From positions 1-36,266 of the IMG/VR virus record IMGVR_UViG_3300047669_001621: a stretch of DNA of 36,266 nt; one strand, 5' to 3'. Positions 5,428-23,525 of the stretch are shown here, piece by piece. A program made the position numbers and the translations under genes. This stretch comes from a virus. Taxonomy: Duplodnaviria; Caudoviricetes. The first letter of the stretch is position 1. Every line of letters begins with the position of its first letter. Below the pieces are notes generated by a model, which did no database searches, had not been told where the DNA came from, and saw only the letters and a list, made by a program, of their open reading frames with translations.

Positions 5428-5608
5428 GTGCCATAGGTTTACAGTTACCGTGACTGGCGAGAGGGAGATAAACATAAACCTTTCGGGTGAGGCATGGGAG
5501 GTCAGCTACGACAGTGGCGAGCCGGCCGGAATAATCTATCAGAAGTTCGATGGGCTGGAGGAGGCGGTTACCCATGCTCGAAAGCTCGCGGGAAGTAAAG
5601 TCGTTTAG
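5414..5608 (+). CDS. Hypothetical protein
   Basis: ATG 5414 overlaps the upstream gene end; fills the gap in the operon. Confidence 0.6.
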   Translation: MTEIKCHRFTVTVTGEREININLSGEAWEVSYDSGEPAGIIYQKFDGLEEAVTHARKLAGSKVV

Positions 5609-6377
5609 TGCGGTAGCCACCGCCCCCTGCCATAAGGAGGCTGCCCTAATGGTGTATAGCATCAGGCAGTTCTACCAATGCCCGATACTAATCATCACCG
5701 ACGAGGAGACTCAAGCCTACCTTAGGCAGTTTAATTTTGAGGACGTGGTCTGCAGGCCGGAAGCAACGAAGGATCACTTGGCCGATGCCGAAAAAGCGAT
5801 CAGCCACGTCAAGAAGCAGAATACTTTTCACAATAGGGGTGCTATATATAAAAAGATGGATGCGATTGACTGGGGAGTGTCCGACTGCGGGAACACCATG
5901 TTCCTTGACGCCGACATAACTCTCGTTAGGTCTATACATCGAAGCATAACTCACCCCGTTATGCTTTCACCGCACCACCACACGCCTAATAGGCAGAAAG
6001 AAAACCACAAGTACGGAGGGTTCAACGCCGGATATGTGTTTACGTCGGAGCCTTCCCTGGCCGACTACTGGCGCGAGATATACTTGCACCGCTCTTCCTT
6101 CTATGAGCAGCAGGGCATGGCCTTGCTGTTTGAGGACTTCGACGTAGGTAAGTTTGATAAATTCCACAACATAGGGTTCTGGAGAAACACCGACCCCCAG
6201 ATACCAGAGCTTCCGTTCAGCTTTGGACTCACCCGATCACTGCACTGCCACTTCGATAAGGCTGCATACAGAAATGCGGACGACGGGTTGAAGACGGCAT
6301 ACGACAAATGGAATTTATTTTGGCGACGACAGTTGCCACCGAAACTTAATAGCTTCATAAAGGACGTAGGGATGTGA
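5574..6377 (+). CDS. GT-A glycosyltransferase (GT8/nucleotide-diphospho-sugar transferase-like)
   Basis: MFLDADI DxD motif, GGFNAGYVF, FYEQQGM, LHCHF; GGAGGAGG SD before ATG 5574. Confidence 0.8.
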   Translation: MLESSREVKSFSAVATAPCHKEAALMVYSIRQFYQCPILIITDEETQAYLRQFNFEDVVCRPEATKDHLADAEKAISHVKKQNTFHNRGAIYKKMDAIDWGVSDCGNTMFLDADITLVRSIHRSITHPVMLSPHHHTPNRQKENHKYGGFNAGYVFTSEPSLADYWREIYLHRSSFYEQQGMALLFEDFDVGKFDKFHNIGFWRNTDPQIPELPFSFGLTRSLHCHFDKAAYRNADDGLKTAYDKWNLFWRRQLPPKLNSFIKDVGM

Positions 6378-7138
6378 ACAACGCGACATTAGTGATAGCC
6401 CAGTTTGGAAATGGCTGGCCATACCTAGACCTGTGGCTATCCACCGTAGCTAGACAAGCTATGGATGTTTTGTTTTTTACCGATCACGATTTTGATGCTC
6501 CCCCAAATGTGAAGATACACAAATGCTCTATGGATGATATATTCGATAGGGCTGAAAAAACATATGGGCTAAAGTTTCAAGCCAGATACCCATACAAGCT
6601 ATGCGACCTCAAGTCCTTCTATGGTAAACTTTTTGAGGATGAACTTAGGGACTATGAATACTGGGGGTATGGGGATTGTGATGTCGTATATGGTAAGCTT
6701 CCTGCATTTAGTGACCTTGAGCTGTACTGCGCGAAACACAAGCGTTCGGATATGGCACTCGTCGAAAGCAAAAAGCCAGTTGGTAGATGGTTCATACCCG
6801 GACATTTCGTGATGATGAGAAATGATGATCGTGGGAGAAGAATATTTGAACACCTTCCGACTGCTAAAGCCCTGCTTGAGGAAGACACGAATAACTATAT
6901 AGATGAATGGCTAGTGCCTACTGTCTTGATCCATGAATATGGGCTAGGGGCTGGAGGAATAAAGGCGCAGGACTATAGGTATATTAACCGTCGCCCGATA
7001 ACACTGAGTGACGGAGCCTTAAGTGTGGGCAGGGAAGAGCTTAACTACATTCATTGGTACACAGACAAGGACAGAGTGAAGACCCCCAAGTGGCGTGATA
7101 TACCAAGCACTTTTAATGTTAAGAATTACATGGTATAA
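6374..7138 (+). CDS. DUF6625-like putative glycosyltransferase-related protein
   Basis: QFG..WPYLDLWLST, YPYKLCDLKSFYG.LF, YEYWGYGDCDVVYG (DxD), GHF; this motif set is typical of the family found in polysaccharide loci. Confidence 0.7.
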   Translation: MNNATLVIAQFGNGWPYLDLWLSTVARQAMDVLFFTDHDFDAPPNVKIHKCSMDDIFDRAEKTYGLKFQARYPYKLCDLKSFYGKLFEDELRDYEYWGYGDCDVVYGKLPAFSDLELYCAKHKRSDMALVESKKPVGRWFIPGHFVMMRNDDRGRRIFEHLPTAKALLEEDTNNYIDEWLVPTVLIHEYGLGAGGIKAQDYRYINRRPITLSDGALSVGREELNYIHWYTDKDRVKTPKWRDIPSTFNVKNYMV

Positions 7139-7780
7139 ATGAAGCGGTTCACTATAGTTCTGAGTTGCGAGAAATATAAGAATCGCCGAGACAGGCAGGA
7201 CAAGACTCACCTTGGTGATTATAAATATTTTATCGGAGATTCAAGTTTGGTAACCAAGCCAATTTGTGACTCAAAGCCCAAAGAGGATGGGGATATCGTA
7301 TATCTTCCATGCCCAGATACCTATGAAGCTTTGGCCTCAAAGGTGGTGGGTGCGATAGAGTGGGCTTTGGAGAACAGAGAGTTTACTCATATCCTAAAAA
7401 CGGATGATGATGTTCGCGTTAATGAGAACATACTGGATTGCGATAGGGAGGCTGAAGCGCATGACTATAGCGGAATAGTATGCGAGGGTGGTGGAGGCTC
7501 TGGTTATCATCGAGGTCGATGCATGACGAATTATTACGTCAACATGAGACATGAATGGATTGGGCATGATCTGGCTTGGTGTAAGGGTGGAGCGTATTAT
7601 TTGTCTCGCAAGGCGTGTGAAATAATCGTGAACACCAAGTCCATGAGATACTGGAAGATACTTGAAGACGTAACGATTGCCGGTATACTCAAGCCCCATA
7701 AGATAACCCCGGTTCCACTTGGAGAAGGATGGTCGGTCGCGGGTAAAGGAACTTTAATATTAAAAGCGTGCAGATGGTAA
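7139..7780 (+). CDS. GT31-like (galactosyltransferase/Fringe) glycosyltransferase
   Basis: DTYEALASKV, HILKTDDDV, WCKGGAYYLSR and LEDVTIA motifs. Confidence 0.8.
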   Translation: MKRFTIVLSCEKYKNRRDRQDKTHLGDYKYFIGDSSLVTKPICDSKPKEDGDIVYLPCPDTYEALASKVVGAIEWALENREFTHILKTDDDVRVNENILDCDREAEAHDYSGIVCEGGGGSGYHRGRCMTNYYVNMRHEWIGHDLAWCKGGAYYLSRKACEIIVNTKSMRYWKILEDVTIAGILKPHKITPVPLGEGWSVAGKGTLILKACRW

Positions 7781-8316
7781 TGAAAATTATAGGAATAGGA
7801 CTACCAAGGACTGCGACAACATCATTGCATAGGGCATTTGAGATATTAGGTTATAAATCAAAACACAGTAATCACGTCATACACCCTGATGAGCAACAAT
7901 CATATAATGATTATGACTGCTTCTGTGATACGCCGTATTATTATTTATATAAAGAGATTGATAGAAAATTTCCTAATACAAAATTCATTCACACCCACAG
8001 AAGTCTTGATAATTGGTTGAATAGCTGGGAGAGGTTATACAATCAAGATGGCCCCGACTGGGTTGAGAATTGTCACTTACATAATGTAAAGTTCTTTGGT
8101 CAACGGAACTTTGATCGGCGAGTATGGACGGAAAAATATTATGAGCATCATAGTGATGTTGAAAAATATTTCAAAGACAGGGGGGCAGATTTATTAAGAA
8201 TCGACATAACGACCTGCGATGATAATTGGAAATTGATATGTGATTTTTTGAGCAAGAAAATTCCGACTGACAACTTTCCCAATATTGACCATCTCAAGGA
8301 TGAGCAATATACCTAA
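7768..8316 (+). CDS. PAPS-dependent sulfotransferase family protein
   Basis: KIIGIGLPRTATTSL 5'-PSB loop, FPNTKFIHTHR..DNWLNSW, W..ICDFL...P...FP. True start may be a few codons later. Confidence 0.85.
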   Translation: MQMVMKIIGIGLPRTATTSLHRAFEILGYKSKHSNHVIHPDEQQSYNDYDCFCDTPYYYLYKEIDRKFPNTKFIHTHRSLDNWLNSWERLYNQDGPDWVENCHLHNVKFFGQRNFDRRVWTEKYYEHHSDVEKYFKDRGADLLRIDITTCDDNWKLICDFLSKKIPTDNFPNIDHLKDEQYT

Positions 8317-8929
8317 AACAATACATTACTGTTGGTTTGGTAGGGGTAAAAAGAATTACCTTCTAAACAAATGTATAAAAACATTTAGTGATATTCATCC
8401 CGAATGGGAAATAAAAGAATGGAATGAAGATAACACGCCAATGAATCCCTATATCACAAGGGGTTTGCAAGAAAAAACTTGGGCGTCCGTTGCTGATTTT
8501 GTTCGTTTATATGCAATACATGAAGAGGGTGGCGTTTATTTGGATACAGATGTGGAAGTAGTTAAACCATTTGACAGTCTATTGAGTGACAACTTGTTCT
8601 TTGGTTTTGAATGTCGTGAGTGGATATGTAATGCCACATTAGGCGGAACTAAAGGAAATAACTTCATCAAGTTATGCATTGATACCTTCTTGAAAAAATT
8701 TGAGGAAACCCCGCCATCATTGGCATCTATATCGGGACCAGTTTTTCTCACTAATATGTTAAAAGAGCATTACGGTTTAGCGTATCATTGCAGTCCAACT
8801 GCATACCCTGATGGTATTAGGGCATATCCTGAAAAATTTTTCTATCCTTATTATTATACGGAAAAATTCACACCAGAATGTATAACCGATGACACGATCT
8901 CGATACATCATTGGGCAAAGTCATGGTAA
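8300..8929 (+). CDS. GT32 (OCH1-like) DxD glycosyltransferase
   Basis: IPKTIHYCWFG, ADFVRLYAIHEEGGVYLDTDVE, SGPVFLT, IHHWAKSW. Confidence 0.9.
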   Translation: MSNIPKTIHYCWFGRGKKNYLLNKCIKTFSDIHPEWEIKEWNEDNTPMNPYITRGLQEKTWASVADFVRLYAIHEEGGVYLDTDVEVVKPFDSLLSDNLFFGFECREWICNATLGGTKGNNFIKLCIDTFLKKFEETPPSLASISGPVFLTNMLKEHYGLAYHCSPTAYPDGIRAYPEKFFYPYYYTEKFTPECITDDTISIHHWAKSW

Positions 8930-13692: not shown

Positions 13693-14334
13693 TTACCCTT
13701 CCTCCCATCTGTGCTTGGTCCAGCTATGCGCCTTCCTCTCCGCGCCTACCAGTTGTGTGGGGTACTTTGATCCTGCGTCTACGCCAACCCATCCCTCATA
13801 GAACTCGGCATCCCATTCCTTGTTCATTCTCTGGGCGACACCATCCCAGTACTTAGCCTCCACCTTGTCCTCGAAGTTGAATATAGTAGGTACGTATACG
13901 TGATTGTCCTTAGGTTTTTCATCTACCTTGTGTACGCTTGGCAGTAACACCCTTAGTACGGACTGCCTATCCTCATACCTCCCCGGTATTGACGGCATGT
14001 CCAGTACTATCAAGGTTCCCCTACCTATGCCGTGCCTCCTCGACAGTCCCTCGCAATCAAGCCACTCGGAAAACGAGTCGGCAACTGGAGTCAGCTGCCT
14101 TCTTATCAGCGACAAGGCGTCGGTAAACTCATGCTCTATCGACAAGCGTTCGAGCTGTCTGTTATACATAACCCCAGTCACCGTGTTGAGGAACACTCGC
14201 CACCCGTTGTACTTCGGCGTGAATATAGTATTACGTTTGTCCGTCATCTCCCACACCTTACCCAAGGGCTTGCCCCCGGTGGTGGGGCGAGCGGGATAGG
14301 TGGGGGGGAAGGTGTCAATGGTCGCGGTGTTCAT
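13693..14334 (-). CDS. ATP-dependent ligase-like nucleotidyltransferase (adenylation domain only, 213 aa)
   Basis: Motif I TPKYNGWR, Ia YNRQ, III WLDCEG, IIIa LIVLDM, IV YEGWV, V WTKHR. Start taken as ATG 14334. Confidence 0.75.
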   Translation of the reverse strand: MNTATIDTFPPTYPARPTTGGKPLGKVWEMTDKRNTIFTPKYNGWRVFLNTVTGVMYNRQLERLSIEHEFTDALSLIRRQLTPVADSFSEWLDCEGLSRRHGIGRGTLIVLDMPSIPGRYEDRQSVLRVLLPSVHKVDEKPKDNHVYVPTIFNFEDKVEAKYWDGVAQRMNKEWDAEFYEGWVGVDAGSKYPTQLVGAERKAHSWTKHRWEEG

Positions 14335-14653
14335 GTTTTCGTTCAGCTTCAGCTTCTTCGCCAAGCTTCTTATCGTAGTTAAGTATCTCTCCCATGCCCT
14401 CGTCGTTGTAGTGGTCCTCAATCGCCTGACGGACAAGCGCTTCATCGGGTGGGTTCATTAGTATTTCAGTGGTGACAGACTCAATGACCACATCACTTAT
14501 GTCGATGGTGGGGCCAGGGTCATGCGTTAGGTTGACCTGCTCTCCGTAGTCATAGGAGAAGGAGTTGTCCTGCACGTCATACTCAATCAACCCCTCAACC
14601 TCATGCAACTCTCCGCCCTCATCCTCGTACTCGAACTCGAACGGGTATGTCAT
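14315..14653 (-). CDS. Acidic hypothetical protein
   Basis: ATGA-coupled; very Asp/Glu-rich. Confidence 0.75.
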   Translation of the reverse strand: MTYPFEFEYEDEGGELHEVEGLIEYDVQDNSFSYDYGEQVNLTHDPGPTIDISDVVIESVTTEILMNPPDEALVRQAIEDHYNDEGMGEILNYDKKLGEEAEAERKHEHRDH

Positions 14654-21501: not shown

Positions 21502-21699
21502 CTAGTTTCTCCATTTCTCCAGCATCAGCTCGACAAGACCGTCGAACTCCTTCTTATCTTCGCCAGCAACTCTAATGAGGCACTCCTTCTGCCTCTCAAG
21601 GGAAATTATCCTTCCGGTCAGCTTCCCAATAGCTTGGTGAAGTTCTGCAACTTCTCGTTGTAACACATTGTTGAGTTGGATTTCTCCTTCAGTATTCAT
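21502..21699 (-). CDS. Small coiled-coil protein (65 aa)
   Basis: LQREVAELHQAIGKLTGRIISLERQ heptads; lies between structured tracts. Confidence 0.65.
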   Translation of the reverse strand: MNTEGEIQLNNVLQREVAELHQAIGKLTGRIISLERQKECLIRVAGEDKKEFDGLVELMLEKWRN

Positions 21700-21702
21700 G
21701 TA

Positions 21703-22455
21703 AAATTTAATTAGCCGTGGATGATAGGCCTCAAGGTCGTTACCCTATGATTCGCACTATTTCATGGTGATACCAACATTCTCACCAACTCATCATTCCA
21801 GTTCTTTTTACAACGAACTTGCCACACGGCTAATAAAATGAAATGTTCCGAGTTACTGCTCGGGCAGACTCCTTGTGGTTAGAGCTTTTTTCATAGCATT
21901 ATTAGATATGTATGTATACAAAGTATACATTGAAAAATATAGGCGTTGCCCCCTTCTCTCGCAACGTCTAGTGGTAACCTCCCGTATAACATGTTACCCC
22001 CTTAAATTGATGCACTATACTGGTTATACCATAGTGGCTGTCCCCTATGCCTACCTTGAACTGACGACAGGTGATAAGCCTCATATAAATCGTTCGTCGC
22101 AGTCGGGACTCCGAGTTACTTTACCTAAGCAACAAAGGCTAATGTCATTAGCTTATCCAATGCGTTCGCAACTCTTCAATCTTCTGCCCAATACATTACT
22201 GCATCGTTAGCCTTGATTGACATGAGAATGTCAACCCCGTTGGACGGGTTGGTAAGGGCAAGCATGAATGCCAGCATTGCGCGAACTGTCGAGACCTATA
22301 CACTGGGGTTCAATCCTTCCTAATCCCTTTTGCCGATTGCTCAGCTTGGTGTTACCAAACACCAATGAAATGTTCCTGCTTACCCAACCCCCATCATAGG
22401 GTGCGGGCTTTACGGTCTTGCACCGACGGTTGGCAGGGCAACCACTCCTTTCTTC
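21703..22455 (-). ncRNA. Candidate large structured non-coding RNA or array of small RNAs (~750 nt)
   Basis: No - strand ORF >=60 aa; more than a dozen stems; G-U wobbles and a GCAA tetraloop work only on the - strand; repeated motif with compensatory changes. Confidence 0.55.
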
Positions 22456-22458
22456 GAC

Positions 22459-22743
22459 TTAACAGCCGACGTAAAACAACTTACGAACACCACCATTCGG
22501 CATCCGATGAGCCACTATTCTGTCCCAGCGACCCTCAGTTTCCTCATCTCTCACCAGTAACTCTGGCTTAACCCTATTCTTAGGGTGACCAACATAGTAC
22601 TGATCCTCGGCATCCTTCATCAGTCGCTTCACCGTTATAGGTGACAACCCAGCCTTCTCGCTTGGACTAGCCGGCTCATGTTGAGCAAACTTAATCCGAT
22701 TCAAGTAAGCCAACGGCTTCCAGTCTTCCTTTGATATATCCAT
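22459..22743 (-). CDS. Hypothetical protein (94 aa)
   Basis: GAGGA SD before ATG 22743 (MDISKEDW); the longer track ORF runs through a terminator. Confidence 0.7.
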   Translation of the reverse strand: MDISKEDWKPLAYLNRIKFAQHEPASPSEKAGLSPITVKRLMKDAEDQYYVGHPKNRVKPELLVRDEETEGRWDRIVAHRMPNGGVRKLFYVGC

Positions 22744-22768
22744 AATGTAATCCTCTGTTGTCGTATTG

Positions 22769-22808
22769 AAAAAAAGAGATAAGGGGAGACTGGCGAACCA
22801 GTCCCCCC
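22769..22808 (-). terminator. Intrinsic terminator-like hairpin
   Basis: - strand GGGGGACTGG-TTCG-CCAGTCTCC then TTATCTCTTTTTTT. Confidence 0.7.
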
Positions 22809-22829
22809 TCGAAAGTGTGACCTTGTGGG

Positions 22830-23243
22830 TCAACCCATCAGTCCTGACAAGAACCCTCCTCCACCGACTGCCGTAGCCTTCGGTGTCGCCGCCTTAGCCT
22901 CACATACTTGTGCCTTTCCCTCAGCGGTGATGGTGACAGCTCGTGCCTCCAGTTCTGCAAGGGACAGGTAGTATGACCGACTACGGCGAGACCCTCGAAA
23001 GCCTTGACTCTGCAGCCAAGACCGAAAGCCTTGCACCATGGGAGTGTCCATGCCATCCTTGTAGGCAAACTCCGTAAGCAATTTCTTGCCCACTTTAGCC
23101 AACTGCTGTTCAACGTTCCATTCGAGCAAGCCTTTACCCCCAAGGTCGTTGAGCAGGCTCAGCAACCCTTCACCCTTGAGTAGGGGAGCATCGTTAATCT
23201 TGCGGTCATTCACGCTGTTGTTAGCAAACGGTTCCATCGTCAT
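22830..23243 (-). CDS. Hypothetical protein, first gene of the leftward early-type operon
   Basis: GGAGG SD 10 nt before ATG; followed by a terminator. Confidence 0.75.
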   Translation of the reverse strand: MTMEPFANNSVNDRKINDAPLLKGEGLLSLLNDLGGKGLLEWNVEQQLAKVGKKLLTEFAYKDGMDTPMVQGFRSWLQSQGFRGSRRSRSYYLSLAELEARAVTITAEGKAQVCEAKAATPKATAVGGGGFLSGLMG

Positions 23244-23373: not shown

Positions 23374-23399
23374 TGTCATACAAGTACAGTAGTATGACA
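23374..23399. promoter_or_regulatory. Palindromic protein-binding site candidate
   Basis: TGTCATAC-N10-GTATGACA, perfect 8-bp arms in a divergent intergenic region. Confidence 0.45.
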
Positions 23400-23407
23400 C
23401 GATCAAA

Positions 23408-23460
23408 GGGGGGAGGGGGTAGGGGGGGAACGCACATATCATGCATATCATATATATATC
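23408..23460. other. G-rich tract plus AT-dinucleotide run (possible packaging/terminus signal)
   Basis: G6-A-G5-TA-G7 followed by CATATCATGCATATCATATATATATC. Confidence 0.4.
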
Positions 23461-23525
23461 CCCGTTCTCTAGTTTCCAAGAACCTGCAATCTTTTAATTT
23501 CAGGCATTCGGGCAAACATAGGTAC

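Follow-up and report, generated by a model that had tools for sequence, protein, structure and literature searches.

A modular cassette of conserved non-coding RNA structures in the genome of a seawater phage

The window analyzed here, 36,266 bases long, is a complete linear entry for a virus; it comes from seawater metagenomes and represents an estimated 50% of the genome. Its genes include those for terminase, portal, DnaB, Sak and integrase, together with a series of small minus-strand genes of unknown function. Inside this series, between the open reading frames (ORFs) at 22459–22749 and 21502–21699, lies the non-coding tract with which this work is concerned; its features are listed in Table 1. 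A collection of cultured phages showed no DNA similarity to the tract, or to the cassette of a relative, and protein similarity to cultured phages is below 35%, so that a host cannot be assigned from these matches.

The gene on the far side of the terminator-like hairpin (22830–23243) encodes a protein with weak winged-helix-like fold matches only (best Z 5.5); the downstream protein has no clear fold match (best Z 3.5). Relatives carry a longer homologue of the small upstream ORF, with a weak match to a helix-turn-helix. The proteins neighboring the cassette have no match in Pfam or PADLOC, a search for a partner protein gave no usable Atlas match, and no Pfam RNA-enzyme match was found among the 30 window proteins or 25 proteins of the relative G001. 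Two stretches of DNA in this neighborhood deserve mention. Between divergent genes, at 23378–23497 (L014:5746–5834), non-coding DNA is conserved (80% over 91 bases) and contains an AT-alternating run and G/C runs: it is possibly an origin, a packaging site or a divergent promoter. In relatives a 9-base direct repeat with a spacing of ∼21–22 bases (L014:5858–5895 and 7736–7775) stands upstream of both putative transcription units (see below), and it is possible that this repeat is the operator for the winged-helix-like protein.

Table 1. Features of the cassette and its immediate borders, in the 5′ to 3′ order of the minus strand.
Feature	Position	Strand	Description
Intrinsic-terminator-like hairpin	22781–22810	−	3′ of upstream gene 22830–23243; strong
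Small ORF	22459–22749	−	96 codons; directly upstream of cassette
Pseudoknot G	22375–22443	−	H-type; stems 1 and 2 of 5 bp each, single-base loop 1, hairpins inserted in a 48-nt loop
AU-rich linker 1	22366–22374	−	Contains RNWUU site
Module A	22011–22365	−	∼355 nt; 5′ hairpin and GNRA hairpin, variable 5′ half, conserved 3′ core
AU-rich linker 2	21999–22010	−	Between A and H; RNA contig ends at 22001, 22002 and 22001
Module H	21944–21998	−	Two hairpins with purine-rich loops
Sigma-70-like promoter match	21936–21964	−	9/12; at the relatives' AT-rich promoter-like site, ahead of homologous hairpin
8-bp hairpin	21912–21930	−	Homologue of hairpin preceding basic peptide gene in five relatives
Decayed peptide gene	21853–21894	−	13 codons; at the place of the relatives' 35–37-residue basic peptide
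Pseudoknot F	21848–21867	−	Shorter paralogue of G; stem 1 of 3 bp, stem 2 of 5 bp, single-base loop 1
AU-rich linker 3	21833–21847	−	First nine bases identical to linker 1
Module B	21710–21834	−	125 nt; closing stem, A-rich-loop hairpin, inner helix, 4-bp pseudoknot, variable insert
AU-rich linker 4	21700–21709	−	Between B and ORF 21502–21699
ORF after module B	21502–21699	−	Next gene beyond linker 4

Relatives of the locus were found with profiles of the two flanking protein families, which returned 4 viral and 9 metagenome loci; scans with single proteins returned no relatives and a scan with a third gene family no additional genome. The loci that reach into the tract come from six sources: L014/L015 (near-identical and counted once), L020, L021, L024, L027 and L028. 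L021 ends inside module A, and L016, L017 and L025 end before the tract. Two pattern scans were discarded: a linker pattern gave 12 matches, at chance level and with no further likeness, and the core-pattern matches L031, L034 and L035 are coding sequence in which the flanking helices are missing.

In all relatives the upstream gene is followed by the terminator-like hairpin, then the small ORF and then the non-coding tract, and a similar hairpin and U run are seen at the position of the terminator. Within the tract the order of modules was determined by anchor motifs and all-against-all BLAST. The window reads A-H-hairpin-B and is the most compact of the cassettes seen whole. L014 reads A-H-D-hairpin-peptide-C-B and L028 is the same plus one extra insert ahead of B; L027 reads A-H-hairpin-peptide-C; L020 runs A-H-hairpin-peptide and then into the next gene, with neither C nor, at its place, B. 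Thus A and H are found in the window, L014/L015, L020, L027 and L028 and are both missing from L024 (D-hairpin-peptide), B is found in the window, L014/L015 and L028, and C and D occur in relatives only. The modules are helix-closed units with U-rich linkers between them, and their distribution indicates that they are gained and lost independently. This bears on the initial annotation, which had proposed a large non-coding RNA or an array of small ones: independent presence and absence speaks for the array, with one member of ∼355 nt, and gives no support to a single RNA of 750 nt.

The modules seen only in relatives are the following. Module C (L028:2296–2688, L014:8007–8400 and L027:2100–2497; ∼395 nt) is highly conserved, with an intricate fold and no Rfam match. 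Module D (L028:1704–1825, L014:7584–7705 and L024:1877–1995; ∼120 nt) has a closed fold with a U run at its end; because it has two short motifs in common with the 5′ half of C, the two may be related. The extra insert of L028 (L028:2700–2866; ∼165 nt) is closed by a stem, lies between C and B and is found in this genome only.

Folding energy does not single out the tract. The initial annotation had described dense structure and suggested z-scores on each strand: relative to shuffles an 801-nt fold has a z of −1.60 on the minus strand and −1.51 on the plus strand, neither of which is significant, and for 100-nt windows the mean z is −0.65 in the tract (n = 7) versus −0.36 elsewhere in the region 9.4–30 kb (n = 199). 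The reality of the structure was therefore judged by comparison with relatives. The stems named in that annotation all lie where it placed them (14 of 14 plus-strand motifs and 5 of 5 minus-strand motifs with G-U pairs). The hairpin 21930–21912 and the helices 21998/21973 and 22036/22013 covary. Two stems are doubtful: the long-range pair 22205/22009, which shares positions with the covarying stem at the end of module A, and the hairpin 22152–22138, which competes with an 8-bp helix (22207–22214 / 22135–22142). Its choice of the minus strand as the RNA strand is borne out, since the G-U variants among homologous pairs and the GNRA loops make sense on that strand only. It had seen no credible gene, and indeed every homologue of A and of B is interrupted by stop codons in all frames of both strands, which rules out a tiling of the tract by micro-ORFs; a GTG frame of 111 codons that lies on the plus strand (21875–22210) is specific to the window. 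We conclude that the tract is real non-coding RNA: a cassette of modules, not one molecule.

Nor does the cassette match a catalogued family. Rfam 15, the catalogued families of which include GOLLD, ROOL, OLE, RNase P, tmRNA, riboswitches, ribozymes and introns, gave a single match to the tract when E values as high as 10 were admitted, with a score of 14.3 bits versus a threshold of 47, and, with the whole window at E up to 1, nothing within the tract; the loci of six relatives gave four matches (E 1–4.9), all far below threshold. The Rfam search proposed alongside the first description thus leaves tract and relatives alike without a family. ARAGORN found no tRNA gene in the window, in 10 of 10 loci or in 6 pieces of the genome of G001, and no tmRNA or tRNA-like RNA in the window or the 10 loci, a search that a very divergent two-piece form would escape. 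The tract has no Rfam CRISPR-repeat match, and a CsrA sponge of the CsrB/RsmZ type is ruled out by the number of GGA motifs (12 in 753 nt versus 14.3 in shuffles).

Module A is the largest module of the window cassette. Its 3′ core (22129–22010) consists of four helices and two possible 4-bp pseudoknots. A covariance model confined to this core, and built from four relatives without the window, recovers 22129–22010 with a score of 79.5 bits (E 5e-18); the best of the other new matches scores 11.1 bits. In a five-row alignment 131 of 132 cells are paired and both partners have changed in 12 of 27 pairs, a level reached by none of 500 shuffles, and slid registers pair at 35–43%; because the alignment was fitted to the model and its rows are related sequences, these figures are not probabilities. 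Within the core, the terminal stem 22036/22013 has double changes in 4 of its 10 pairs. The two 4-bp pseudoknots pair in 40 of 40 cells with no double change and are candidates only. Pairing also holds outside the core: in an unfitted six-row alignment a helix of the 5′ half is paired in 28 of 30 cells, with a double change in 2 of 5 pairs, and for the GNRA hairpin 22345–22332 a script identified equivalents built on different stems in three of five relatives, to which inspection by eye added a fourth (L014).

For module B there are three independent homologues, compared with five for the core of A, and sizes range from 91 nt, the shortest homologue, to 135 nt. The closing stem is invariant in all four rows and 99 of 100 cells are paired; only 2 of 25 pairs covary, which is not above shuffles (67 of 500 reach that level). 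The arms of B are 94.4% and 96.4% identical to those of L014, while the two flanking genes are only 63.6% and 67.6% identical. This identity could reflect recent exchange of the module. A and B have a short motif in common, yet the model of A scores B at only 11.1 bits (E 0.63), which does not support a reading of the two as paralogues.

Module H adjoins the 3′ side of A in all five genomes that hold the 3′ end of A. Its first stem (21998/21973) has double changes in 3 of 6 pairs, with 34 of 36 cells paired, and the 8-bp hairpin that follows has double changes in 2 of 8 pairs, with 48 of 48 cells paired. In five relatives an AT-rich promoter-like site is followed by this hairpin and then by a gene for a basic peptide, and the distance between promoter and hairpin is the same in the window. 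By number, sigma-70-like matches are not in excess (2 found versus 4.5 expected in shuffles), and the match at 21936–21964 taken alone is within chance. The peptide gene of the relatives (L014:7864–7971, with homologues in L020, L024, L027 and L028) lies in the middle of the cassette and encodes a conserved and very basic product of 35–37 residues, a candidate RNA-binding partner; in the window the ribosome-binding site is lost and a stop codon follows after 13 codons.

The initial annotation had noted AU-rich tails at the ends of several domains; these are conserved linkers, and two of them come after a repeated pseudoknot that it had not recognized. The repeated linker occurs as two copies 527 nt apart, each preceded by an H-type pseudoknot three bases before a U-rich tract. 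Pseudoknot G begins 15 nt past a stop codon and has a homologue at L024:1809–1860; the final loops of the two window pseudoknots measure 48 nt and 3 nt. With a strict descriptor of pseudoknot plus U-tract the minus strand of the window yields two matches, each of which falls in the tract; the plus strand yields no match, and the mean over 30 shuffles is 0.07. A relaxed descriptor finds 11 sense matches and 1 antisense match in 76,724 bases from nine sources, 10 of the 11 sense matches lying in cassettes, against a mean of 0.275 and a maximum of 2 in 40 shuffles, and one match in 59,498 further bases of G001. The descriptor was written after six copies were known: only four of the cassette matches are new, one of which had been spotted by eye in the meantime.

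The copies are dispersed, with one to three per relative, and their stem sequences vary while pairing holds: stem 2 shows 2 double changes among five copies, and the descriptor matches add five more stem-2 sequences. Their position is tied to the ends of genes. Seven of ten cassette pseudoknots start between −8 and +15 nt relative to a stop codon and the others at +23, +37 and +51; at +23, the stop codon of the decayed peptide falls inside the pseudoknot. What comes after the linker is either an RNA module or a gene. All five window linkers contain RNWUU, the core motif of RNase E in Salmonella (accessible text of PMC5222698), a coincidence of little weight because the linkers were picked for U-richness.

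Six of the 20 sequencing runs that contain this stretch are RNA runs, and four of these (X7, X12, X13 and X14) were examined. X7, X12 and X14, which belong to three studies, each contain one contig over A (22001–22328, 22002–22347 and 22001–22356, respectively), with no loose end; X13 has no contig over the core of A, and H, F and B have no RNA contig in any of the four runs. In X7 the A contig has a depth of 28.7 versus 2.4–5.3 for six other contigs, and in X12 a depth of 6.6 versus 3.1–5.6. The longest A contig begins 9 nt inside the predicted 5′ end of the module, and all three end at a run of G, 6–10 nt beyond the cut predicted in the linker, a place at which an assembly may also break. 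No joint of a circular RNA occurs in the RNA contigs, which would not by themselves show the absence of circles. Since contigs carry neither strand nor true ends, and may be DNA, the common stop at 22001–22002 is a weak hint of an RNA end. One further RNA-run contig (22613–22861, depth 5.3), possibly of DNA origin, spans the terminator-like hairpin.

The reading that we favor, with a probability of roughly 0.55, is that the cassette is co-transcribed with its flanking genes, cut by an RNase E-type activity at the linkers into pieces with pseudoknot-protected ends, and the source of free RNAs, A and B, that bind proteins. Two overlapping transcription units would be involved. In the first, read-through past the terminator at 22810–22781 would yield a transcript comprising ORF, G, A and H; in the second, a promoter at 21964–21936 would drive hairpin, F and B. 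A host endonuclease similar in type to RNase E would cleave the single-stranded AU-rich linkers, leaving the pseudoknot as the 3′ end of the upstream piece, where it may slow 3′ decay, and the downstream module would begin with a closed stem. A and B, once released, would act as free RNAs that bind host proteins. Read-through is a requirement of the first unit because the terminator-like hairpin lies upstream, and the same hairpin bears on two earlier suggestions: that the RNA is made very early, which is unsupported given a strong terminator ahead of the cassette, and that the modules act in antitermination, which is unlikely for this terminator because they lie 3′ of it.

As to what the released RNAs might do, we tentatively prefer a protein-binding decoy or scaffold, because the invariant positions are unpaired or pseudoknotted within closed folds and do not form an exposed seed sequence. 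The modules may have an anti-defense or decoy role, as first suggested. A bolder reading, which we think unlikely, sees the cassette as an RNA-only early arsenal: a swappable unit in which pseudoknot plus linker is at once cloning site and maturation signal, so that whatever structured RNA is inserted after it would be set free as an effector, and in which A and B are a new class of counter-defense decoys or catalytic RNAs.

Other explanations were weighed against release by processing. The modules might remain in one transcript and act in cis, as leaders, stabilizers or ligand-sensing switches for short genes, and it is true that B directly precedes an ORF in the window, L014 and L028 and that the hairpin at 21930 comes after a promoter-like site. 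However, the ORF after B is different in these three genomes, and that of the window has no ribosome-binding site beside B; A always precedes further RNA modules, never a gene; neither a terminator nor a start-codon-masking helix is attached to A or B; and the RNA contigs over A end at its 3′ end. A cis role is therefore quite unlikely. A different possibility is that one of the modules A and B has self-cleaving or ligating ribozyme activity, so that the cassette would cut itself with no need of a host nuclease. No Rfam ribozyme or intron model scores and the borders of the modules are simple AU-rich linkers, which leaves this very unlikely, even with the compact cores, the invariant unpaired bases and the pseudoknots in its favor. 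The core of A has short likenesses to what we take to be core elements of intron ribozymes; its helix order, compared by hand, presumably fits neither the HDV nor the group I order, and bases in B that we take to be hammerhead-like are lost in L028. Least credible is the view that the RNA folds are incidental to a sequence that has degenerated or that acts as DNA, in the form of an origin, operators or palindromes. Energy not above the genome background, and RNA contigs that may be DNA, would sit well with this view, but it is contradicted by changes on both sides of pairs, with G-U variants that are confined to one strand, by GNRA loops, by covariation in the pseudoknots and by conservation of the B arms far above that of coding DNA.

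The pseudoknots raise a further possibility: that they are antitoxin mimics that neutralize a host type III toxin in the course of infection. In the accessible text of the sources concerned, type III antitoxins are tandem arrays of 34–45-nt repeats (PMC5086642), and the 45 nt of CptI form an H-type pseudoknot whose L1 is a single base, whose stems are coaxial and whose L2 is long and rich in A (PMC4627078). The pseudoknots of the cassette are predicted to be H-type with single-stranded tails, as expected of a monomer of this class, and copies in relatives have the outline of CptI, in that loop 1 is a single base and the second loop is A-rich and 8–9 nt long. There is also precedent in the pseudo-ToxI repeats that phage TE directs against ToxN (PMC3475682, accessible part). 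Yet where type III antitoxins and the phage TE mimics need tandem repeats, the copies here are single and scattered, with those of the window 527 nt apart; their stems differ freely, the loops of the window copies measure 3 and 48 nt, and their position follows stop codons. Neither Pfam nor PADLOC finds a toxin gene nearby, which a phage mimic would not require. As mimicry would, moreover, leave modules A and B unexplained, we regard it as very unlikely.

Among known RNAs, GOLLD and ROOL invite comparison; to our knowledge their structures are solved, they have no function assigned and they occur singly. In the accessible text of PMC12286853 the ROOL studied is 659 nt, GOLLD is often longer than 800 nt, and both often adjoin tRNA genes in phages and prophages and form RNA-only multimers. 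As there described, they resemble the cassette in being phage-encoded, heavily structured non-coding RNAs without an assigned function that occur in marine data, and in GOLLD, as in module A, the 3′ part is conserved while the 5′ part varies. In contrast, the cassette has no Rfam match, A is only ∼355 nt, there is no tRNA island in the window or the scanned relatives, and several unrelated modules stand in one shuffled row, a comparison made at the level of sequence and predicted fold. A second parallel is the crAss-like Cellulophaga phage phi14:2, which has a virion RNA polymerase and early long non-coding transcripts (bioRxiv 10.1101/2020.03.07.982082). There too, in the part of the report available, a long intergenic RNA with no function assigned lies among small genes and is more abundant than its neighbors; that part describes neither structure nor modules for it, and the virion RNA polymerase motif is absent from the one giant protein tested in a relative of the window. 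Small RNAs that RNase E releases from polycistronic or 3′-UTR precursors, as presented in the accessible text of PMC5222698, likewise place structured RNA beside single-stranded AU-rich RNWUU sites 3′ of coding sequence. The phage cassette differs in its several large closed folds and in a dedicated pseudoknot before the linker, and its cleavage is predicted.

The structured RNAs of this locus are thus real and uncatalogued, and they form a cassette of exchangeable parts in which a signal resembling one for processing is repeated. A literature search, with most subscription papers outside its scope, returned no description of such a cassette; in the accessible text and supplements of PMC10690425 two contig identifiers and two motifs had no match, and the alignment files of that work may hold pieces of the modules. 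The significance of the cassette lies in the combination: several uncatalogued RNA folds in one row, swapped like genes between related phages and sharing a common punctuation signal. If the pseudoknot is a protector of 3′ ends beside a cut site, then it is an RNA-processing device of a kind not returned for phages in the literature searched. The RNAs are short enough to be synthesized for laboratory study (a 120-nt core for A, 91–135 nt for B and 20–70 nt for the pseudoknot), and the simple pseudoknot-linker descriptor can be used to find such cassettes in other phages.

Elsewhere in these genomes, the ORF at 13693–14445 of the window has no match in Pfam, PHROG or PADLOC and contains a lysine motif that we take to resemble that of ATP-dependent ligases. 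G001 encodes a protein of 5,658 residues (L042:2796–19772) with no Pfam match and without the RNA-polymerase motifs tried. Finally, a cluster of glycosyltransferase and sulfotransferase genes occupies positions 5550–8929 of the window, and G001 has a different set at the corresponding place.
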